Below, piece after piece: positions 1,807-64,000 of a DNA stretch of 64,000 nt; within the stretch, counting starts at the first letter, position 1, and every line of letters starts with the position of its first letter. The position numbers were made by a program, and so were the translations under genes. A model generated the notes under the pieces. The model saw only the letters and a program-made list of their open reading frames with translations. It did not search any database and was not told the DNA's origin. The stretch lies in assembly GCF_024223415.1 (NCBI RefSeq), contig NZ_CP100500.1; one strand, given 5' to 3'. The stretch is from Escherichia coli. GTDB lineage: Bacteria; Pseudomonadota; Gammaproteobacteria; Enterobacterales; Enterobacteriaceae.

Positions 1807-3389
1807 TGTGAAAATATTAAATTTATATTACATTTTAATTATCGACAAAAAACACATAAAGAAATCTAAAGGGAATGAGCGTCAAATGAGCTGATATAGC
1901 GCCAGTTTGGTATGGTCATGTGATTTGATGATTAAAGCTTACGGATAATAACACTCCTCTGTGAGCCATATAAATGAGCATGCCATAATCGTCAGTTCAG
2001 AGATAAAACTGACTGAATGATCTTATGTTATAGTAAGCAGTGTTTACCGGATACGATGACTTATCTCTCTCACATCATATGGATTCACTTTCATGGGGTA
2101 AAGCGATGGGACTACAGACGCTGATTATGATGGTTTGCTGTAAAGTTAGCACAAGTTTTTGCTGTACAGAATACGGAGTAAGAAAAATAATTCCAGAGTA
2201 AATCTGCTCTGCTTTTGAACAGAAAAGATTCATGCTTACCGTGAAAAACTGAAACCAACATTCAGTCTGCATGGATGTCTTAAGATGTTGAGAATGTCGG
2301 ATATGGTATTATATACACCTTTTCCATTAGGTCCTTTTATGTTTTCATTAAGTCGTTTTGTATGTATTCCTCCAGTGATTCATTAGTGCCTGTTTACGCA
2401 TTTACACACTTTTCCCATTAATCTCCTTTAAATGTGTTTCATTACGCATTGCTGTACACATTTTTGAACTGATACACATCCAAGTTAGTAAACCTGTCAG
2501 TTCTGATTTTACGTTAACTAAATCAGTTTAATGCTGCTGTAAAACAATCCTTCCTGTTTAAGCAATCAATCTGCTATTCGATTTTACTGATGTGACGTTT
2601 AACCTTTCCTGAGCTTTGGTTGTTTGTGGTTTTTGGTTTGTGTTTCGACGTTAAGCTGAGAAAAGTATCTTTACGCTAAATCAACCCGAACTTTCCTGAG
2701 GTGATCTGACGTTCTTTTCGATGTGCTTACGACGATTCTGTTAAACGACTTTCTGGATGTTTTGATAACAATCAGATTGAGGCATTAACGATTCCTGACG
2801 TTTTGCTTTTTCATGTAAGGTCATTGTTTTCGTCATGATGTGGTTTTTCTTCTTGCATTGCGAAAGTGTGATGATTGGTTTTGGTTTTTTGATTCAGATG
2901 AGATTTACGTTATCGATGGTTAATCGTTTTTATGGTGAGTAGTGAAACGTAACATTTTCGGGATGAGAAAATCGATTCTGATGGTGATGGGGATGATCGT
3001 GTTACGGCGTTATCTGTAAACAGGTTTTAAACGTGTCATTCGCATTCGTGATTGAGTTGTGTGATTAAGCTGTAGGTTTTGGCGTTGTTGTTGATTTGCA
3101 TTGCCAGGAAGCGTTCTGGTTGCGTTTCTGGTGTTTTGTTCGAATGTTCTGTGGATCCTTTTCCCTTCAGGCTTTTCTCGTCGTCCATGTCGTTTTTAAA
3201 TCCATTCATGCTGTTGTTGCGTGTTTTGCTGCTGTGTGCAGGATTATCTTTTCGTTCCGGGATGGTTTGTTCCGTTTCAATCACTCTTAATCAGAGAGTT
3301 GTAGCATTGCTTAATGACATGATGCCGTAAAGTTTTACCGCGGTGATTAATGATGTGAAGTCAATCCAAATCAACGGAGATCTCTCATC

Positions 3390-4121
3390 ATGAATCAACC
3401 AATACACAATGCTTACTGGTTATCCCGTTTTGACAGCCTTCTCGACAGTGCCCTGTCGCAGCACCGTGCCGTCTCGTTAATCCGGGTGGATTTACGTTTC
3501 CCTGAGTATATGCCTGTCACCATCATGGATCCCGATCCGGATTCAGCGGTGATTTCTCGTTTTTTCGAATCCCTGAAAGCCAAAATCCAGGCTTACCAGC
3601 GGAAAAAACGACGTGCCAACAAGCGTGTGCGTGCAACCACTCTGCGTTATTTCTGGTGTCGGGAGTTTGGCAAGGAAAAAGGCAGGAAACATTATCACGT
3701 GATATTGCTGCTCAACAAAGATACCTGGTGCTCGCCAGGGGATTTCAGCGAACCATCTTCGCTGGCGACGATGATCCTGGAGGCATGGTGCAGCGCCCTG
3801 CATCTTGAGGCCTGGCAGGGTAATGGACTGGTTCATTTTTCCAGGCGGACGCCTTTCCGTAAACCGACATCATCTGATGCTCGCCCTTCTTCCGATGATA
3901 CGCCTTTGTCGGGTGGATGTTCTGATACCAGGAAGGCTTCAGACAAAAAGCCGGGTGAAGCCGCTGTTCTCTGGATCAAGCGTGGTGATGTGGCAGCGAT
4001 GCAGAAAGCCCGGAAAAGAGCCCGTTATCTCGTGAAAAATCAAACGAAGCAGCATAATGGTTCCGGTCAACGTAATTATGGTTGCAGCCGTGGGCCGGGG
4101 CGTCTGCTGGATGGCAGGTGA
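3390..4121 (+). CDS. inovirus Gp2-family protein (YagK/YfjJ-like)
   Basis: 243 aa ORF MNQPIHNAYWLSRFDSLLDSAL...RVDLRFPEY...HYHVILLLNKD, pattern of YfjJ/YagK island proteins; preceded by conserved upstream motif. Confidence 0.65.
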   Translation: MNQPIHNAYWLSRFDSLLDSALSQHRAVSLIRVDLRFPEYMPVTIMDPDPDSAVISRFFESLKAKIQAYQRKKRRANKRVRATTLRYFWCREFGKEKGRKHYHVILLLNKDTWCSPGDFSEPSSLATMILEAWCSALHLEAWQGNGLVHFSRRTPFRKPTSSDARPSSDDTPLSGGCSDTRKASDKKPGEAAVLWIKRGDVAAMQKARKRARYLVKNQTKQHNGSGQRNYGCSRGPGRLLDGR

Positions 4122-4631
4122 AGTCTGTAAAACGGTATCCGGTGCCAGGGGGGGGATATCACGGTAAGGGCGTCAGCCAACGTCTTTCGCTCGTATTCTG
4201 ATAACCCGTCCTGAAGTCATGTATCTGCTTCCATTCTCATGTTCATATTTCTCTTACGCTTTCACTGTCTGTCATCGGAAGTACCGATTTATTTTGGTGC
4301 TGCGCACTTACGGCCATTCACGGAAGAGGATTGTGGTGAACAGTAGGAGTCTGGCTGCTGGCGAGGGAAGGTTCAGGACTGGTATGGGGTTTAGTGCTGG
4401 AGGATGACTTTGAATCCCGGATTGACCAGTGAGGGGGCAGTGAGAGGATGCTCTGGTGTAACAGGTCTGGATTACAAAATATAAAACCGGTTGTACACTC
4501 GTAACGGGTAAAAGGATACGGGCAATAACACGTGGTACCCGGTGAGACTGGCTCTTGTATCACATTACCGGGAATATTCTGGCAGGTGAAATGTTCTGAT
4601 AAGAATCATCCTGAGGGAGGATACAACGGAT

Positions 4632-5084
4632 ATGAACGTTATTGACAGCCGCATTCGTGATGTGAAATTTGGTGAAAATGTGAAAGTCGTCATGCCAGTA
4701 AACCTCTATGAATGTGAACTGGGGGATGATGTTTTTATCGGTCCCTTTGTGGAAATACAGAAGGGATGCATCATTGGCAACCGGAGCCGAATTCAGTCCC
4801 ACAGTTTCATCTGTGAGAACGTCATTTTAGGTGATGCCTGTTTCATCGGTCATGGCGTAACTTTTCCTAATGATCTGTTTAAGTGTGGTGGTCCCGATAC
4901 CTCTGCAGAAAGCTGGATACGCATCGTATTAGGTAACACTGTAACAGTGGGTAGTGGAGCGACCATTTTAACAACAGAAATTTGCAGTGGAGCTGTGATT
5001 GGTGCTGGTAGTGTGGTTACAAAGCCCGTGCTGGTAAAAGGCGTGTATGCGGGTAATCCGGCCAGACTTTTGAGAACGCTTTAA
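4632..5084 (+). CDS. hexapeptide-repeat (left-handed beta-helix) acyl/acetyltransferase
   Basis: 150 aa with repeated [LIV]-G-x-x-x-x hexapeptides (VFIGPFVEI, CIIGNRSRI, VILGDACFIGHGV, VLGNTVTVGSGATI, AVIGAGSVV). Confidence 0.7.
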   Translation: MNVIDSRIRDVKFGENVKVVMPVNLYECELGDDVFIGPFVEIQKGCIIGNRSRIQSHSFICENVILGDACFIGHGVTFPNDLFKCGGPDTSAESWIRIVLGNTVTVGSGATILTTEICSGAVIGAGSVVTKPVLVKGVYAGNPARLLRTL

Positions 5085-5335
5085 TTATTGAATCCAATAT
5101 TAAACCAGACAGACAGTAAACATAATACTGTTCCGGATATCGCTTGCCGCAGGAACCTCCTTAACATTCAGGAAAATAAAGCTTTTATTGCTGCTATGTA
5201 CCATAAGAGACAGAAGTAATTGATTTACCAGTATTACACCTGTTGAAGCTATGGTTATTCACCTTTTATTTTTTGAGCAGCGTATTTATACTTCCCGGAG
5301 CATTGTTTAAATATAATCGCCCGGGATTGATTCGT

Positions 5336-6241
5336 ATGGCTCTTGAACAGGAAATCGCAAACCTTGTAAACGAGTTTGTCGCGGCTGGTCGTCCATCCTG
5401 TCGTGACCAGACCTTTGATGAACGCCGTGCCGGATATATCGCAAGTACTGCTCTGGCCGGCGATACAGAAACCCGCGTAAACATCAGTGATGTGATTATT
5501 GACGATGTTTTATTGCGCATATTTTCGCCTTTAAACGATGATGGGGTGTTATCCGCAATTGTCTATTATCATGGTGGCTGTTTTGTCAGTGGTGGTTTTG
5601 TAACCCATGATAATCAGTTGCGACAGCTTGCTTTCCTGAGCGGTTGTCGTGTCATTGCTGTACAATATCGATTAACGCCGGAACATATTTATCCTGCGGC
5701 ACATGACGATGCTGAACATGCCGCTAATATTGTGTGGCAACACGCAGAAATGTTGAAAGTTGATCGCAACAGAATAACGTTAATGGGGGATAGCGCTGGG
5801 GGACATCTTGCACTGATAACAGCACTGCGGGTTAAAAACATCGGTCAGTGGTTACCGCGAAAATTAATACTTATTTACCCTATGCTGGATGCCACAGCAT
5901 CATGTGATAGTTACAAATTAAACGGTAGTGACTATGTGCTGACAGCAGACACGTTTCTTAGTGGTTATGAGGCTTATTTTTCCGGTCAGGATTTAGAACA
6001 TCCGGAAGTGAGTCCATTATTCAGGAATGATTTCAATGGGTTACCACCTGTTCATGTCATCACAGCGGAATATGACCCATTACGCGATGAAGGTGAGGAA
6101 CTGTTTTCCCGTATGATTCAACAAGGAGTAAAGTGTACCGCCCAGCGTTATCTCGGTGTCATTCACGGTTTTTTCCAGCTTGGCGGCATTAGCCAGACAG
6201 CCCGTAATCTGATGCAGGATATTTGTGGGATTGTTAAATAA
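5336..6241 (+). CDS. alpha/beta-hydrolase esterase/lipase (family IV, HSL-like)
   Basis: HGGC/HGGG oxyanion motif (YYHGGCF) and GDSAGG nucleophile elbow; start placed at MALEQE, the 5243 start adds a hydrophobic extension and is uncertain. Confidence 0.7.
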   Translation: MALEQEIANLVNEFVAAGRPSCRDQTFDERRAGYIASTALAGDTETRVNISDVIIDDVLLRIFSPLNDDGVLSAIVYYHGGCFVSGGFVTHDNQLRQLAFLSGCRVIAVQYRLTPEHIYPAAHDDAEHAANIVWQHAEMLKVDRNRITLMGDSAGGHLALITALRVKNIGQWLPRKLILIYPMLDATASCDSYKLNGSDYVLTADTFLSGYEAYFSGQDLEHPEVSPLFRNDFNGLPPVHVITAEYDPLRDEGEELFSRMIQQGVKCTAQRYLGVIHGFFQLGGISQTARNLMQDICGIVK

Positions 6242-6487
6242 TCACGTAACAAGCAGCTACAGGTAAATTAGCTGAGCATGCATCCATCATTTGTCGCTGC
6301 GATGCCAGACTTCCGGATGCTCATATGTTGTTTTACTTTTGTCAGCATAAATGCTGCGTCGGGACTGGTGAATGGAGATAAGCCATTTTATTATCGACGT
6401 CAGAGAACATACTCACAATGTCGGTATGTTTCTGAAATTAAGGGTAAGTTTTGCGCTGATTACAGTATGCGAAGGAGATCTGGCACA

Positions 6488-8080
6488 ATGAATCCCGCTT
6501 ATATGCAATCCCCCCATTTCCCGGCAGATTTAACATACAGATTATTTCCTCGTAAGCTTGCGTATCTCATTGACGACTTATATGAAAGTACCCAACTTCC
6601 GCTGGATCTCATTTTTAATACTGTACTGGCAACGCTCTCACTCTCCTGTCAGTCATTGGTTGACGTTGTTCATCCTCACACCAACATGCCGGAACCCTGC
6701 TCACTTTATCTGTTGACAATCGCAGAGCCAGGCGCGGGAAAAACAACGATAAACAGACTGGTGATGAACCCCTGTTACGACTTTGCCGATCGACTCATTC
6801 AACAATACGAAGAGAGAAACAAAGATTATAAAACTGAACTACAGATCTGGAATACCCGACAGAAAGCTCTTTCTGCCAGTTTAAGAAAGGCTATTAACCG
6901 GGGGTATCCGGGAGAACAGGAAGAAGAGGCGCTGCGTAATCACGAAAGAAATAAACCGACACGTCCGGTTCGACCGAATTTTATCTATGAAGATGTTTCA
7001 CTTAAAGCGCTTGTGGAAGGACTCAACGAGCATCCGGAGGCGGGAGTTATTTCTGATGAAGCGGTAACTTTTTTCAGAAGCTATCTGAAAAATAGTCCTG
7101 GTCTGTTGAATAAAGCATGGAGTGGACAACCGTTTGATTTTGGACGGGCTGACGAGAAATATCATATCACTCCACGCCTGACATTTTCGCTAATGTCCCA
7201 ACCGGATGTTTTTACGGCTTATATAAATAAAAATGATGTACTGGCCAGGGGAAGCGGATTTCTTTCCCGGTTTCTGTTCAGTCAGGTTGTAAGTTCTTCC
7301 TGGATACGTGATTATACGAGAGGTGAGTTCAGAACAATACCAACCCTGGAGAATTTTCATAAAAAGATTAACGGATTTCTGTTAAGCCATAACATTAATT
7401 CCCCCGGCATGAGCACCGAAAGGAAGACATTAAAACTTGCGAAGAAAGCGTTGGGGGAGTGGCAGGAAAACCAGAGTAAGATTGAAAGCAAAGCGCTTGC
7501 AGGAGGGGAGTGGGAACACATCAGAGATATTGTTCTGAAAGCAGGTTCTAATATACTGAGGATAGCGGGTTTATTCACCTTCTATGGCAATAAAGATGCT
7601 GAGGAAATTGAATCAATTGCGCTTTTTAACGCCATGCATCTCATGGACTGGTATCTGGAGGAGGCAAGCGCAATATTTTATCCCATGTCTGAGCGACGCC
7701 AGTTTGAGCAGGATGCCTGTGAACTGTATGCATGGATTATGACCCGAATCAGGCAGAATAACTGGTGTGCTATCAGGAAAACAGATATTGAAAGATATGG
7801 TCCCAATCGACTGAGAAGAGCAGAAAAGCTTACACCTGTACTCAATCAGTTAATTGCTCAGAATTATTTCTGTATCATCAAAATGCGCTCGCATCAGGCA
7901 CTTTATGTTTCTGTTCGTAACAATAATGGTTACCTCCTTCCTTTCGGCACAATGTCTTACGAACCGTTTGATGTTGTACCCTCCTTGTATAGTCATAATG
8001 CGAAAATATATCCCGTTAATATTCCACCGGAATTAATCCAGTCATTTGCGTTACCTTTTTCAGCCTATAACTTATTCTGA
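6488..8080 (+). CDS. DUF3987-type protein (YfjI-like, primase C-terminal-like) with P-loop-like AEPGAGKTT
   Basis: ORF with IAEPGAGKTT motif; family recognised by similarity to YfjI of CP4-57-type islands; start at MNPAYMQ chosen over upstream 6278 start. Confidence 0.6.
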   Translation: MNPAYMQSPHFPADLTYRLFPRKLAYLIDDLYESTQLPLDLIFNTVLATLSLSCQSLVDVVHPHTNMPEPCSLYLLTIAEPGAGKTTINRLVMNPCYDFADRLIQQYEERNKDYKTELQIWNTRQKALSASLRKAINRGYPGEQEEEALRNHERNKPTRPVRPNFIYEDVSLKALVEGLNEHPEAGVISDEAVTFFRSYLKNSPGLLNKAWSGQPFDFGRADEKYHITPRLTFSLMSQPDVFTAYINKNDVLARGSGFLSRFLFSQVVSSSWIRDYTRGEFRTIPTLENFHKKINGFLLSHNINSPGMSTERKTLKLAKKALGEWQENQSKIESKALAGGEWEHIRDIVLKAGSNILRIAGLFTFYGNKDAEEIESIALFNAMHLMDWYLEEASAIFYPMSERRQFEQDACELYAWIMTRIRQNNWCAIRKTDIERYGPNRLRRAEKLTPVLNQLIAQNYFCIIKMRSHQALYVSVRNNNGYLLPFGTMSYEPFDVVPSLYSHNAKIYPVNIPPELIQSFALPFSAYNLF

Positions 8081-8860
8081 AATAAACCAACACAGATGAA
8101 ACGAAAAAAAACAACATTCATTCGAAGGTTGGTGGTAAGGAGTTTGCATATCCTGCATCTGTGCAAATATTCACCAGTTATGGGGCGCGAACGAAAATTT
8201 CTCTGAAAAAATCGCTACGGTAGCAACAGTAGCAGCACATGCACCATGTCTGTTATTTGATTTTGTTTTCATAATGACCTGTTGTCAAAGCTGATTGAAT
8301 ACAGGAGTGTGCGCACTGGTGGAAGAGTGGCTTTCGTTTTTGGTTATTCGAAAGAAAATCGAAATATTGTTTTTAACATAGCTGAAGCTAATCATATAAC
8401 CATATTTTTTGAGTTTTTATATATAACTTTGTTTGATTCTTGTCGTAATGAGTGCTGGCGTATATGACGATGTCGCTCTCTTTCTGAATAACGAAAGGTT
8501 ATCAGTCTTTTACTGACAAGAGATGCTGTTCAGGTTTCAATGGGAGATTGAAGAAAAACGATTTGATATTTTCCGTGAGAGAATGTCTTGTCAGGTTCAT
8601 ATTCATAACGGATAATTTCTTATTTTCACTCATCAGACATGGATAATTTTAATTTAGGTTTATTACTATAATTAGTATCTGTTCCTTTATTTTTATCCAT
8701 CTATCCCTTTATTTTTCATCTATCTATCCTTTTATTATTAGTATCTGTATTTTTATTATTGGCATCTGTCTATTTATTTTTATCATTCTCTCCTCTCTGT
8801 CTTTACTCTCATTGCTCTTACTCTCATTCTGTTATTTCTACTCGTGTTATCGTGTTCACT

Positions 8861-8940
8861 CTATCACTCTATCACTCTATCACTCTATCACTCTATCACT
8901 CTATCACTCTATCACTCTATCACTCTATCACTCTATCACT
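8861..8940. repeat. octanucleotide microsatellite (CTATCACT) x10 perfect copies, with degenerate CT-rich flanks 8681-8950
   Basis: Counted directly: 10 head-to-tail copies of ctatcact from 8861 to 8940, 11th copy degenerate (ctatccat). Confidence 0.95.
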
Positions 8941-9689
8941 CTATCCATCTCTCAATCATAACGATTGTCACTCATATGATACTCAGCCATGTTATTTTCT
9001 ACTGCTCTGCTGAGCTTATCTGTCTGTTCTCATCTTCAGTGAAACAGCACCTGATTTTACTCTTATCCATCATGAACTGTCTTTGTTCAACGATGATGGT
9101 ATGTCTGATATGTGTTAACCATTTTGATGGGTATCGTTGATTATCCGATGGTTAAGCTTCGATAAGGTTATCCATAGAACAGTGTGGGGTAAGCAACATG
9201 ATCCCTGATGATATTTGTTCCGTGTTGTCTTGTTGTTTAAGCGACAGGAAATATGTCAATGGCATGTTTTATTCTGCTGCCGTGAGCCATGCATGTTCTG
9301 AAGAACAGATTGAATGAGCGCATGTGAGTTTATTACGTTGGCCTTGTACACGTTTTTTTAGAACCACTGAGAGCAAGTTTGTAGTTTATGATGCTATTGG
9401 TCGTAATATGTTTCTTGAACTTTTGATCGTGGGTTTTTATCTCGTATTTTTCAGCATTTCTCGGTGTTGTATTGCGTCGATATTTTCTTTATTCCCGTTA
9501 ATATCATCTCGTCAGTGTCCATTCCTTTCATCACAATGCGTATCGTTAATAATCTGTTGTATCCATCCGCCTACAGCATGCCTGATAAATACCGTCTGTC
9601 AGTTATTACCGTTTTAGATCTGATTATGAGCGAAGGTATTCATTCGCTGACAGAACTTAAAACGTCATTAACTTACAGGAGTTATCAGC

Positions 9690-10259
9690 ATGCCTCAGTC
9701 TTACACACCAGACTGGTTTTTTACCGCCTTACTTGACCATCACATCGATCAAATGATGGCTCGCTATTCCTGTCTGCGGGCCTTACGGATGGATTTCTTC
9801 TACAGGAAAGAGACGCCTGATTTCTTACAACCTGATCACCGCTGGCTTGAATTGCAGTTGCGTATGCTGCTGGACCAGGTTGAACGGTTTGAAAATATGG
9901 TTGGTTTCTTCTGGGTGATTGAATGGACGGCTGATCATGGTTTTCATGCGCATGTGGTTTTCTGGATCGATCGTCAGAGGGTGAAAAAATATATCCCTTT
10001 GCGGAGCGGATAACCGAATGCTGGCGGGCTATTACGTATAACTGTGGTTCGGCGCACCGCTGTACATACCAGCCGCATTATGCATACAACATCAACATTC
10101 CCGTGCGCCACAACGATCCTGAAAGCATCGATAATATTCGCGGTGCCCTGCATTATCTGGCGAAAGAAGAGCAAAAAGACGGACTGTGTGCATACGGCTG
10201 CAGCGAAGTGCCTGAACGTCCTGCTGCAGGGCGACCACGCAAGCTTCACGTCTGAAGCT
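9690..10259 (+). pseudogene. inovirus Gp2-family gene, frameshifted
   Basis: N-terminal 107 aa ORF (…FWVIEWTADHGFHAHVVFWIDRQ…) stops at 10013; family-like continuation (ITYNCGSAHRCTYQPHYAYNINIPV...ALHYLAKEEQ) runs in a different frame to 10259. Confidence 0.55.
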
Positions 10260-10493
10260 TAAACCCTGAACCTCCGCACCTGGAAACAAGCCATCGGTAA
10301 AAACTTACCGCATTGCTTAATGATGTGAACCGAAGTCAACGGAGTTCATTCACCCTGAATGTTCTTTCCTGATATTCCCGCTCAGCGTCGGTTCTTCACC
10401 TGTTCCATCAACCTCATCCGCAGCCTGTAACCCGTCAGCCCATCCATCCCCGGGCAGGACGCGTTGTGGGCTGCGCATAACGGAGCATATCCT

Positions 10494-36839: not shown

Positions 36840-38062
36840 ATGTCGCAACCCTTACTGAAAGTAACCGACCTGGCAAAAAGCTTTTCCGGCGTATGGGCGC
36901 TGAGCAGCGCCCAGCTCACCGTCGGCACGGGTGAAATTCACGCTTTGCTGGGCGAAAACGGCGCTGGGAAATCCACGCTGTTGAAGGCACTCGCGGGCGC
37001 ACAGCCACAAACGCGCGGGGAGATCTGGTTCAATGGCGAAACGCTGCCGGTGGACGACTCCCCGGTAGAACGGCAGAACAAGGGCATTATCACCATCTAT
37101 CAGGAATTCAACCTGCTGCCCAATATGACCGTTGCGGAAAACATGTTTCTCGGACGCGAACCGCGTAAACGTAACCTGATCGTCGACGAAAAAGCGGTCA
37201 ATCAGGAAGCGCAGGTGATTCTCGATTATCTGCAGCTGAATGTCGCACCCACCACGCCAGTCGCCCGTCTGAGCGTGGCCCAGCAGCAGATGGTGGAGAT
37301 TGCCCGGGCGCTGACCCTCAATGCCAGGCTGATCATCATGGATGAACCCTCCGCCGCCCTGAGTGACAGCGAGGTGGAAAGCCTGCACCGCGTGGTGCGG
37401 GAGCTTAAAAACCGCGGCGTGAGCATTATTTACGTTACTCACCGTCTGCATGAAGTTTTCCAGCTTTGCGATCGTTTCACCGTTTTCCAGGATGGCCGTT
37501 TCACCGGCACCGGCGCAGTGACGGAGACGAACGTAGAGCAGTTGATCCGCCTGATGGTAGGGCGTGATGTGGCCTTTAACCGCCGCCCTGCCAGCGAAAC
37601 CCACCATGAAGACAAACCTGTCCGTTTGTCGGTGAAGGGGTTAAGCCGGGAAAAACCGCCGCTGGATCCACACGGCATCGCCCTGCATGACATCAGTTTT
37701 CACGTCCATGCAGGGGAAGTTCTGGGTATCGCTGGGCTGGTGGGGGCTGGTCGTACTGAGGTAGCGCGCTGCCTGTTTGGCGCCGACGCCTTTACCACCG
37801 GCAGCTTTGAGCTGGACGGCGTGCCGTACCAGCCGCGTGACCCACTTTATGCGCTGGAGCAAGGGCTGGCGCTGGTGCCGGAAGATCGCAAAAAAGAGGG
37901 GGCGGTGCTGGGTCTGTCGATTCGCGACAACCTGTCGCTCTCCTGCCTCTCCTCGCTGTTGCAGTGGCGCTGGTTTGTGAATACCCGCAAAGAGGACGAC
38001 CTGATTGAGTCCTACCGCCAGGCGCTGCAGATCAAAATGGTCAACAGCACGCAAGAGGTGCG
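36840..38062 (+). pseudogene. sugar ABC transporter ATP-binding protein (two-domain, RbsA-like), 3'-truncated by Mu-like prophage insertion
   Basis: First ABC domain complete (GENGAGKST…LSVAQQQMVEIARAL…IIMDEPSAAL); second domain stops after …QIKMVNSTQEV, before the expected LSGGNQQK signature; sequence from about 38063 is phage end. Confidence 0.75.
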
Positions 38063-38110
38063 TGATGCGCCGCGCGATAAATGCGCTCTATCTTGTGCGA
38101 TAAATGACAA
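38063..38110. repeat. Mu-type prophage end: terminal TG followed by two CGATAAATG-containing repeats (putative transposase-binding sites)
   Basis: tgatgcgccgcgcgataaatgcgctctatcttgtgcgataaatgaca; resembles recalled Mu attR terminus TGAAGCGGCGCACGAAAAACGCG and R-site core CGATAAATGCG. Confidence 0.5.
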
Positions 38111-38140
38111 CCAATCGGCGTTTCATTATTTGAAAAAGAA

Positions 38141-38520
38141 TTACATTTCAGGTTGCGTTATGACTGTCCCAGCGGGGTGATAGCGGTAGATCGTTGACAG
38201 TCCAATATCATAGATAATTACCAGCCGCTTTCTGTCATACCCTTTCTGGAGCAATCTTGCGATCTGCTCATGCTGCTCCTTCGTCAGTTTCGGGCGACGC
38301 CCTCCAACTCTCCCTTGTGCTCGCGCAGCAGTCAGTCCTGCCAGCGTGCGCTCAACTATCAGTTCACGTTCCATTTCTGCCAGTGCACCCATCATATGAA
38401 AAAAAGAACCTTCCCATCGGAGTGCTGGTATCGATTAAATCCGTCAGACTGCGAAAATTGACACCTTTTGCGCGTAGCTCTTCTGTGAGCGAAATGAGGT
38501 GTTTCATTCTTCTACCCAAC
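38141..38520 (-). pseudogene. Gin/Pin/Hin-family serine DNA invertase, N-terminally truncated and frameshifted
   Basis: …LISLTEELRAKGVNFRSLTDLIDTSTPMGRFFF then frame slips at A7 tract (38389-38395), continuing …MMGALAEMERELIVERTLAGLTAARAQGRVGGRRPKLT…; catalytic N-terminal about 60 aa missing. Confidence 0.7.
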
Positions 38521-38815
38521 CGTTACAGCTTCCAGACCACCAATGTATCCCCTCTTTTAAGGCACCTTAAAGCGCGTTTCAGGCCTGGTCGTTGCGACTT
38601 AGTTCCGCTCATTTGTCCTCAAAAATTTGTTCACATCCTGCGCACATTAATACATTGCGTTTTGGTCATTTGTTGACACACGTATGTAGCCAATCAGCAT
38701 CAAAAACACTCCCTTTTGAGTGGTTAAAGTAGTGAGATAATGTGGGGAAGATTTGAGAGATAACCCGCCCCCGCAATATCGCATTTAACTATATTGTGAG
38801 GGCGCGTGATACCGT

Positions 38816-39430
38816 TCAGCCAGCAAGCGCCAGTGGCGCTTCCGGCCAGCTGATTTCAGGTGCCTTGCTGATATCCAGTGCGTTCAGATCGTCGATATAA
38901 TCCAGCACGGCATTCAGTTTTGCCGTTTCTTCTGGTGTCAGACTGCGACCTGCCCGCAACTTAAGGTTGATGAGGTCGATGGACTTCATCGCCTGATCCA
39001 CCCGTTCCTGGCGTTGCTGTCTGGCAACCTCCAGCTCTTCGGCTTGCTGCCGTTCTGTATCGGTTACCCACGCCTCACCGTTCCAGGTATCCCATGGTGT
39101 GGCAGGCTGTTTTGTCGTTGTCCCTTCCGGGTAGTCACCTGGTTGGGTAATCTGGACCGGATTACCGTTCTCTGTGCTGTATACCGTCTCTCCACGATGA
39201 TCGGGGACATACTCCCACCCGTCCAGCGTGGACGTCCGGCAAATCACGTAACCCGGCATTGCCTCTGGCGGGGCATCGGCGCATGAATGTGCCGGGGTAC
39301 CCACCCCCAGGGCCAGATACTCCACAGAGGATGAGGTGTATTCCCGGGTTTCCTCATCATAGTGATATACAGTGATATCGCCTGCGAAAGTGGCGATACC
39401 GTTTTCATCCAGAACTGCAGTGTTACTCAT
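38816..39430 (-). CDS. phage tail fiber assembly protein (Tfa, Mu U-like)
   Basis: 204 aa immediately downstream of tail fiber gene with ATGA-type overlap; typical Tfa position. Confidence 0.7.
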   Translation of the reverse strand: MSNTAVLDENGIATFAGDITVYHYDEETREYTSSSVEYLALGVGTPAHSCADAPPEAMPGYVICRTSTLDGWEYVPDHRGETVYSTENGNPVQITQPGDYPEGTTTKQPATPWDTWNGEAWVTDTERQQAEELEVARQQRQERVDQAMKSIDLINLKLRAGRSLTPEETAKLNAVLDYIDDLNALDISKAPEISWPEAPLALAG

Positions 39431-41274
39431 TAAACTGCCCTCACAATATAATTAAAAGCGATATTGCGCGGTCTGATCGCTATCCATCTGTCTTTTTCAT
39501 TACTCACCAGCTTACCGGCTCTGGCTATTGCCCATCTGTCAACTGGTTTTGTGCCGTACAGGATGCCGTTACCGGTTCTGGGTTGATCAGGGGTTATGTT
39601 TATGATGTCGTTATCATGTGATGCAAATGAAATCCCTGCCTGAATATCTGCACCTCCCGCTACGCCGTGGTACGCCTGTATGGAGGTACAAATATATGTT
39701 GCTTCCTGTGTGGATAACAATAAGCGTCCCCTGTCAATCATTCGCAGGTCATCCCATCCACGAATAAATTCCCCGCGCAAATCTGGTAGCCTGAGGTCAG
39801 GGTAGGCCACCGCCAGTTTTGGGTATTTTGTACGCGTGAATGCGGCACCGTTGCACTGTAACCACCCCTCAGGTGGTCTTGACGAAGGCCACGGAACGGG
39901 TACGCCAACTGGCAGCGTCGAGCCTTCTCCTAAACCAAGGTAATCAAGAATATCTTTTATGCTTTGTTTACCCATGATGACGCGGGCAACAGACGAAAAA
40001 ACAGGGGCGTCTGTGATCTGAGCCCAGCGATGAGTGTGGGCTGCCGAGGCTTTGCTGTTGGCAAGGTCATACGCAGCTTTAACAGCTTTTGGTGTGGCCG
40101 CCAGCATTTCGGAATTGCTGTTTGTGGCGCTGCTTAGCTGTACGATGCCTTTGCGTCCGGTGGTTGCATCCTGTCCTGTATACTTGCTCGTCAGCATATC
40201 GTGTAAGGCTTTAACCGCTTTGGGGGTGGCGGCCTCAGTCTCTGACTCACTGTTTGTGGCACTGCTCAGCTGTACGGTGCCTTTTGCCGTCAGCGAGGCT
40301 GATGGCACACCTGTTATCTGATTCCACGGGTGGGTGTGGCTGGCGGGTGCTTTACCGGCTGCAAGGTCATATGCAGCCTTGACGGCTTTTGGTGTGGCCG
40401 CCAGCGTTTCGGAATTGCTGTTTGTGGCGCTGCTCAGCTGTACGATGCCTTTGCGTCCGGTGGTTGCATCCTGTCCTGTATACTTGCTCGTCACCATATC
40501 GTGTAAGGCTTTAACCGCTTTGGGGGTGGCGGCCTCAGTCTCTGACTCACTGTTTGTGGCACTGCTCAGCTGTACGGTGCCTTTTGCCGTCAGCGAGGCT
40601 GATGGCACACCTGTTATCTGATTCCACGGGTGGGTGTGGCTGGCGGGTGCTTTACCGGCTGCAAGGTCATATGCAGCCTTGACGGCTTTTGGTGTGGCCG
40701 CCAGCGTTTCGGAATTGCTGTTTGTGGCGCTGCTCAGCTGTACGATGCCTTTGCGTCCGGTGGTTGCATCCTGTCCTGTATACTTGCTCGTCACCATATC
40801 GTGTAAGGCTTTAACCGCTTTGGGGGTGGCGGCCTCAGTCTCTGACTCACTGTTTGTGGCACTGCTCAGCTGTACGGTGCCTTTTGCCGTCAGCGAGGCT
40901 GATGGCACACCTGTTATCTGATTCCACGGGTGGGTGTGGCTGGCGGGTGCTTTACCGGCTGCAAGGTCATATGCAGCCTTGACGGCCTTCGGTGTGGCGG
41001 CCAGTGTTTCAGAAGTGCTGTTTGTGGCGCTGCTCAGTTGGGTGAATCCTTTTTCTGTCAGTGTCGCGTCAGGGTGGTTACGGGAACGTGCGTGTTCAGC
41101 CAGTGACTGTGCGACTTCCTCCGTTTTCTTCTTCAGCCATTTCGTCCTGTTTGCCAGTTGCCGGGGGGCTCGATTTGATATCCCGTCTGCACCACCCAGA
41201 ACCGGATCTGATGTCTCCAGTTGATAGATATTTTCTTCCCACTTTTCTGTTTCATTCAGGTTTCCCATAATCAA
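39430..41274 (-). CDS. phage tail fiber protein (Mu S-like) with internal 100-aa tandem repeats and C-terminal tail-collar-like domain
   Basis: 614 aa; repeated block …GTVQLSSATNSESETEAATPKAVKA…; C-terminal …PDLRGEFIRGWDD… collar-like motif. Confidence 0.8.
   Translation of the reverse strand: MIMGNLNETEKWEENIYQLETSDPVLGGADGISNRAPRQLANRTKWLKKKTEEVAQSLAEHARSRNHPDATLTEKGFTQLSSATNSTSETLAATPKAVKAAYDLAAGKAPASHTHPWNQITGVPSASLTAKGTVQLSSATNSESETEAATPKAVKALHDMVTSKYTGQDATTGRKGIVQLSSATNSNSETLAATPKAVKAAYDLAAGKAPASHTHPWNQITGVPSASLTAKGTVQLSSATNSESETEAATPKAVKALHDMVTSKYTGQDATTGRKGIVQLSSATNSNSETLAATPKAVKAAYDLAAGKAPASHTHPWNQITGVPSASLTAKGTVQLSSATNSESETEAATPKAVKALHDMLTSKYTGQDATTGRKGIVQLSSATNSNSEMLAATPKAVKAAYDLANSKASAAHTHRWAQITDAPVFSSVARVIMGKQSIKDILDYLGLGEGSTLPVGVPVPWPSSRPPEGWLQCNGAAFTRTKYPKLAVAYPDLRLPDLRGEFIRGWDDLRMIDRGRLLLSTQEATYICTSIQAYHGVAGGADIQAGISFASHDNDIINITPDQPRTGNGILYGTKPVDRWAIARAGKLVSNEKDRWIAIRPRNIAFNYIVRAV
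40021..41045. repeat. 300-bp tandem repeat, about 3.4 copies, inside tail fiber gene
   Basis: Rows 40321-40620 and 40621-40920 are identical as read; 40021-40320 near-identical; plus-strand shadow ORFs recur at 300-bp spacing (40034, 40334, 40634, 40934). Confidence 0.85.
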
Positions 41275-63857: not shown

Positions 63858-64000
63858 CGCATAATCCGGGATACGCATTCAGCGATGACTGCATTTTCAC
63901 CGGTTTTTACTGCATCCAGAAGTGACTCTTTAAATGGTACGGGCCGGGGCTGCAGAAAGGTCGGCATGGCATTGAGCAGACAGAGCGTTTTTTCCGTGAG

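Follow-up and report, generated by a model that had tools for sequence, protein, structure and literature searches.

The 64-kb stretch of Escherichia coli DNA analysed here (hereafter, the window) very probably carries a dead Gin/Pin-type tail-fibre switch that belongs to a mobile lineage of transposable phages and had acquired all of its lesions before the phage inserted at this site; we put the probability of this reading at about 90%. In the ancestor, a serine invertase encoded beside the phage end would have flipped a segment comprising Sv (the fibre C-terminus), tfa and S'v (an alternative fibre C-terminus, inverted), using one 26-bp site inside the fibre gene and another immediately ahead of the invertase gene as crossover points. 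The invertase gene now carries a stop codon, an insertion and two deletions, and a further deletion of ~425 bp has taken the alternative exon and, in the same event, the inner half of the invertase-side site together with its core, leaving the fibre gene locked with tfa downstream. A locked fibre gene would mean that the phage makes one fibre type only, so that its host range could no longer change, and the phage would presumably still be infective.

The right end of a transposable prophage

Its sequence identifies the element as a transposable, BcepMu/Mu-like E. coli prophage. The window covers its right part, including the right end, and the left end and transposase lie beyond position 64000. 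The right end (38063-38140) starts with 5'-TG, and all related copies cease to be homologous at 38063, next to which 14 different flanks are found (the window included), as is typical of insertion by a transposable phage. Head genes of the Mu type, another mark of such phages, are present as well (Portal_Mu, PF06074, E=1.7e-90; Phage_Mu_F, PF04233, E=3e-25), and the structural genes across 38.8-64 kb are uninterrupted open reading frames. Inside the right end there are two copies of CGATAAATG, at ~38077-38085 and ~38099-38107 and 22 bp apart, which appear to resemble the transposase-binding sites of the Mu R end and are putative transposase-binding sites here. The two copies (window 38077-38107) are followed by CGTTTCATTATTTG.

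The prophage cuts a sugar ABC-transporter ATP-binding gene (36840-38062, plus strand) at approximately codon 408 of 515, the junction lying at 38062/38063. The same gene is uninterrupted in E. coli CE0026f. It belongs to an inositol (iol) catabolic island found in 51 of the 5,426 complete E. coli genomes, and the host flank is 99.8% identical to that of 35 complete E. coli genomes carrying the island. This identity led us to reject a host other than E. coli, such as Salmonella or Shigella, which the iol genes and IS-rich loci had at first suggested.

A single tail-fibre gene and a single tfa

The tail-fibre gene (39430-41274, minus strand) is intact and fixed in the Sc-Sv orientation; its product contains Phage_fiber_2 repeats and a Collar domain (PF03406 and PF07484). 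Next to it, on the same strand, lies an intact gene for the tail-fibre assembly chaperone, tfa (38816-39430; Caudo_TAP, PF02413, E=2.7e-28). The original prediction, that only one fibre C-terminus/tfa set is present with no room for an alternative one, agrees with this arrangement: a second, inverted fibre/tfa set, which would have spoken against a lost switch, does not exist in the window. The gap between tfa and the invertase gene, previously estimated at ~300 bp, proved to be tighter, with 115 bp separating the tfa stop (38816) from the invertase ATG (38700).

The fibre gene also holds a 300-bp tandem repeat (40061-41037; 3.3 copies, 98% identical), each unit of which encodes a 100-aa repeat of Phage_fiber_2 motifs. 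The fibre is 512 aa long in one sister copy (L013) versus 612 aa in the window, and the number of repeat copies thus varies within the lineage. The fibre and tfa cassette (38833-41102) shares 97.9% identity with the H/G-type cassette carried by a P2-like prophage without an invertase (L022, NZ_CP100530.1), compared with only ~72-91% identity to the cassettes of BcepMu-like relatives with an intact invertase, which indicates cassette exchange between phage families.

An invertase gene with four inactivating lesions

Beside the right end, pieces of a serine recombinase are encoded on the minus strand in three reading frames, ending at 38141. Together they make up a full-length pseudogene (38141-38700, minus strand; 190 codons in intact relatives), with DNA ~94% identical to intact 573-bp E. 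coli genes. When the frames are joined, the repaired translation of 190 codons matches the Resolvase (PF00239, E=3e-45) and HTH_7 (PF02796, E=2e-12) domains and aligns to residues 1-182 of Mu Gin (PDB 4m6f and 3uj3; E=1.3e-87 for 4m6f, that is, ~1e-87). The decayed Gin/Pin-type invertase of the original prediction, for which an alignment to Gin had been proposed as a check, was thereby borne out. Judging from the repaired translation, the gene is a member of the Din family (Gin, Hin, Pin and Cin) by descent only: the Ser codon is present and the reading frame is broken.

The start codon is located at 38700-38698, preceded by a leader, CTCAAAAGGGAGTNTTTTNATG (38697-38722, minus strand; Shine-Dalgarno AAGGGAG and the ATG), that is kept in functional relatives. 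The first 14 codons, MLIGYIRVSTNDQN, occupy positions 38700-38659 and include the catalytic Ser nucleophile. It had been claimed that the catalytic N-terminus was missing, which is incorrect; the N-terminal codons lie in another frame, because a 13-bp deletion comes after them and puts them out of frame with the remainder.

Alignment to three intact E. coli homologues (L001, L002 and L003) revealed four lesions, all given here on the minus strand. The 13-bp deletion (38661-38662) removed AACACAGATTTGC, codons 15-19, directly past the catalytic-Ser motif; a 1-bp deletion in an A run changed GACAAAATG to GACAAATG (38614-38615); GAT was replaced by a TAA stop at the Asp of KLDRLGR (38523-38525); and a +1 insertion extended T6 to T7 (38399-38405), which reads as A7 on the plus strand. 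The frameshift in the A7 tract had been predicted and is confirmed, not as the only lesion but as one of four inactivating lesions. One sister copy (L014) carries GAA at the codon of the third lesion, an intermediate state, and its start codon, now ATT, was lost independently. Both features fit a continuing neutral decay in which the frameshifts would have come first and the codon of the third lesion would have changed in the order GAT to GAA to TAA.

One intact crossover site and the remnant of another

An intact gix/hix-like site of 26 bp, TTCTCCTAAACC AA GGTAATCAAGAA, is located inside the fibre gene (39925-39950, plus strand), where it encodes DILDYLGLGEG. It is the sole match in the 64 kb to the Din-family consensus of the hix, gix, cix and pix sites, with 0.01 matches expected by chance. 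The same positions gave the highest score with a position weight matrix built only from the hixL and gixL half-sites (23.2 versus 13.0 for the next best) and are homologous to the fibre-side site of intact relatives. Thus, the search of the fibre gene for a gix-like site, suggested along with the original prediction, yielded exactly one intact site.

On the invertase side, only a remnant of the crossover site is left: GAGAGATAA (38755-38763), the surviving 9 bp of a 12-bp outer half, with the core and the inner half-site deleted. Relatives read GAGAGATAAACG TT GGTTTGGGGGAA where the window keeps only GAGAGATAA, and their invertase-side site lies 35-60 bp upstream of the invertase leader. Instead of the two inverted sites that define an invertible segment, the window therefore contains one intact site and a 9-bp remnant. 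A hix/gix-like half-site had been proposed elsewhere, at the position of the invertase leader itself (38697-38722). With a broader matrix this sequence scores 2.9 versus 26.5 for the real site, differs from the Din-family consensus at more than 3 positions, and is even less hix-like in the functional relatives, the crossover site of which is found further upstream; hence, it does not qualify as a crossover site.

A working switch in the relatives

In the three intact relatives L001-L003, an alternative fibre exon is encoded on the plus strand between the invertase gene and tfa. The open reading frame, of ~143-170 codons, is annotated as 'phage tail protein', and the 5' portion of this frame shares homology, as an inverted copy, with the stretch of the fibre gene that directly follows DYLGLGEG. 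A junction built in silico to represent inversion at the predicted core, with the alternative exon fused to the constant part of the fibre gene, matched many complete E. coli genomes over its full length at 100% identity. Furthermore, two assemblies of strain 83972 (L023, NZ_CP058220.1, and L024, NC_017631.1) carry the Sv-tfa-S'v segment in opposite orientations, with the prophage in rstB and an identical invertase protein (WP_000904922.1) in both. The opposite orientations in strain 83972 and the recombinant junction at 100% identity confirm the placement of the crossover and show that the switch of the relatives works.

Alongside a single tfa, the invertible segment of the relatives contains either one or two alternative exons for the fibre, and tfa is therefore antisense to the fibre gene in the alternative orientation. 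L003 has two alternative exons with a crossover site before each, in a Min-like arrangement, and L001 has an extra exon, truncated at its N-terminus, in direct orientation. The intact relative was found, at ~94% identity, in 592 of the 5,426 complete E. coli genomes, and the host neighbours of the relatives' copies vary (upaG, P2 lysC, aroA, rstB, ssuB, ascB and others).

Deletion of the alternative exon

Compared with the relatives, the window is without positions 3715-4139 of L002, or ~425 bp: it matches the relatives up to 38763 and resumes the match from 38766. In place of the exons of 143-170 codons, only a relic of 13 codons is left (38764-38812, plus strand), encoding PRNIAFNYIVRA and aligning to the 3' end of the alternative, inverted exon in L001-L003; its stop codon has been lost via a 1-bp deletion. 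Positions 38769-38803 of the relic form a 35-nt inverted repeat, 91% identical, with the end of the active fibre gene (39437-39471). The presence of both the relic and the 9-bp half-site shows that the exon was deleted rather than primitively absent. The predicted loss of an alternative inverted fibre module, and with it the frozen switch, is supported by this comparison with intact-switch relatives, which had also been proposed as a check: the relatives carry the ~425-bp exon region that is deleted in the window.

The deletion junction is offset by 3-4 bp from the central dinucleotide, the point at which a serine invertase would cleave, and falls at an ATAA that both parental sequences have in common. 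On these grounds we suggest, with moderate confidence, that the deletion arose by slippage or illegitimate (microhomology-mediated) recombination rather than by an invertase cut. The right junction fits the exon end of the L001 type (ATAACCCGCC) better than that of the L002 type, and the deletion mechanism proposed here depends on the relative that is chosen as the parent. A cassette swap with the P2-like prophage was also considered as the cause of the exon loss and was rejected: the breakpoint of homology is at 38833 and the deletion junction at 38763/38764, 70 bp apart.

Spread of the dead-switch lineage

Using look-ups of exact proteins, we located the dead version in 16 loci (L004-L019) from 13 other assemblies, drawn from NCBI, ENA and Logan, so that the spread described here is that seen in draft and SRA assemblies. 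These loci are 99.4-100% identical to window positions 39000-38063, and the only gap relative to the window is one of 1 bp in L014. All of them have the three indels and the exon deletion, and all but L014 have the TAA. The host flanks of the copies in the 13 other assemblies, which begin at 38063, are all different. Because identical lesions sit beside different host flanks, the lesions and the exon deletion must, by this comparison, predate many insertions, and the decay is that of a mobile phage lineage. The original prediction had implied decay of a local prophage, which is at odds with identical lesions in copies at 13 other sites. As the lesions were present before insertion at many sites, the switch would be dispensable for the spread of the lineage. 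Within this limited sample of assemblies, all copies of the dead lineage (L004-L019) have a single orientation.

In L014 (GCA_958306155.1, CATQWD010000023.1, ~2755-12678), the dead-switch phage resides inside a P1-like plasmid prophage, with genes for holin, LydB, DarA and DdrB-ParB as its neighbours. In L018 (SRR31139410_33), a classical Mu-type left end with repressor, ner-like, MuA, MuB and kil genes (7580-12025) is found on the same contig as the dead-switch phage, at a distance of ~5.5 kb from its right end; thus, two transposable prophages are close together in that genome.

The open reading frame for the 84-aa C-terminal fragment of the invertase occurs in 370 blocks of a public collection, and in 184 contigs compared with 805 for one intact variant of 190 aa. 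The dead version was found in none of the 5,426 complete E. coli genomes, among which only intact relatives at ~94% identity were detected, and the lineage is therefore uncommon. The exact deletion junction had no matches in viral_contigs or in genome_contigs (one genome per species), and neither collection therefore includes the lineage.

Alternative explanations for the loss of the switch

Several other explanations for the state of this locus can be considered. The frameshifts could be errors of sequencing or assembly in a gene that is truly intact, and the A7 lesion indeed sits in a homopolymer, a typical site of such errors; there is, however, next to no chance of this, given that neither the loss of 13 bp nor the replacement of two bases to give TAA is an error of the homopolymer kind and that the lesions recur in the 13 other assemblies. 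An invertase that would turn out intact on resequencing, the outcome that would have overturned the original prediction, is excluded by the same frameshifts and deletions in those assemblies. Decay within a cryptic, immobilised prophage of a single strain would be in keeping with the presence of pseudogenes, which are typical of decaying prophages, and with the host gene interrupted by the prophage, but is very unlikely in view of the identical lesions and deletion junction beside 13 other unrelated flanks, including that in the P1-like plasmid, and of structural reading frames that are uninterrupted across 38.8-64 kb and 94.5% identical to an isolated phage. It is also highly improbable that the lineage never had an alternative exon and that the relatives gained theirs by insertion. 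Several phages, such as the P2-like prophage H16, do have near-identical fibre/tfa cassettes without invertase or exon, but the window keeps the 9-bp half-site and the inverted 13-codon exon relic with its lost stop, and a Gin-type invertase without a substrate segment would be unexplained.

The invertase itself might have excised the exon, by recombining the invertase-side site with a secondary (quasi) site in direct orientation. Something similar has been reported with Cin of phage P1, and one endpoint of the deletion does lie inside the crossover site. However, the product of such a reaction would keep GAGAGATAAACG and TT, whereas the window reads GAGAGATAA directly followed by CCCGCC; the junction is displaced by 3-4 bp from the central dinucleotide and has an ATAA common to both parents; and no gix-like sequence was seen at the right-hand breakpoint in the exons of the relatives. 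We consider excision by the invertase unlikely for these reasons. Under a bolder proposal, the transposable lineage permanently discarded the switch, that is, the enzyme, the site and the exon, and kept spreading to chromosomal and plasmid sites, with the loss possibly under selection. The reason for such selection may be that the alternative orientation, with its single tfa, uncouples the fibre gene from its chaperone and produces poorly infective particles. We regard this proposal as speculative and rather doubtful, and weaker still is the variant in which a new role has been acquired, either by the conserved HTH fragment of 84 aa or by the crossover site that survives. The reading that we prefer is that of a switch that was already dead in a mobile lineage before the insertion in the window, and we found no observation that contradicts it.

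Comparison with known inversion systems

The nearest known system is Gin and the G segment of Mu, together with the other Din-family serine invertases: Cin and the C segment of P1, Pin and the P segment of e14, Hin of Salmonella and Min of p15B. Like gin in Mu, the invertase gene in the window follows the fibre gene and tfa and adjoins a transposable phage's right end, and, as in the Din systems, a 26-bp site resembling hix and gix marks the boundary between the constant and variable parts of the fibre gene. In contrast to a working Gin system, the enzyme gene bears four inactivating lesions, and both the alternative exon and one of the crossover sites have been lost. The functional relatives are in turn unlike Mu: they have an Sv-tfa-S'v segment with a single tfa, as opposed to the two complete S/U sets of Mu. 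There is also no mom gene past the invertase, in contrast to Mu. Among the tail-fibre inversion systems of the Gin/Cin/Pin/Hin/Min family, the feature is thus a decayed representative, located in a phage that is BcepMu-like and not Mu proper, and we found nothing in it outside the known kinds.

The phage is related to members of Bcepmuvirus, such as Escherichia phage PhiKM (PQ738613.1) and Klebsiella phage KP12. Its nearest isolated phage is PhiKM, to which the structural region at 42-59 kb of the window is 94.5% identical at the DNA level. The Mu-type portal, the Mu F-like protein and the P2-like baseplate and tail genes of the window are all Bcepmuvirus-like, and so are the variable insertion sites and an element ending in TG. 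The record of PhiKM is annotated with a transposase, GemA, a Mor-like activator of late transcription and Gam, and differs in that a short fibre gene is followed directly by early genes, without an invertase.

There is a precedent for a Mu-type phage with a possibly inactive host-range switch, namely, SfMu, a Mu-like phage of Shigella flexneri. A non-inverting G segment has been suggested for SfMu, which has a 1-bp change beside the crossover core and yields lysates without a difference in host range (PMC4406740). In SfMu, gin, the two inverted repeats and the two S/U sets are all retained, whereas the loss in the window is structural and irreversible.

Implications

For annotation, the 84-aa open reading frame publicly labelled 'recombinase family protein' is to be read as a fragment of a dead invertase, and annotators should regard the lineage's fibre gene as fixed and not as phase-variable. 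Gin-type switches of BcepMu-like E. coli prophages are active in ~11% of the complete E. coli genomes, and the lineage examined here implies that loss of the switch need not stop spread. These findings leave the current understanding of such systems unchallenged; mildly notable are the travel of a dead switch with a still-mobile phage and, in this family, an invertible segment that has a single tfa, unlike that of Mu. If the loss was selected rather than neutral, the lineage would reveal, as a natural experiment, what programmed switching of tropism costs.
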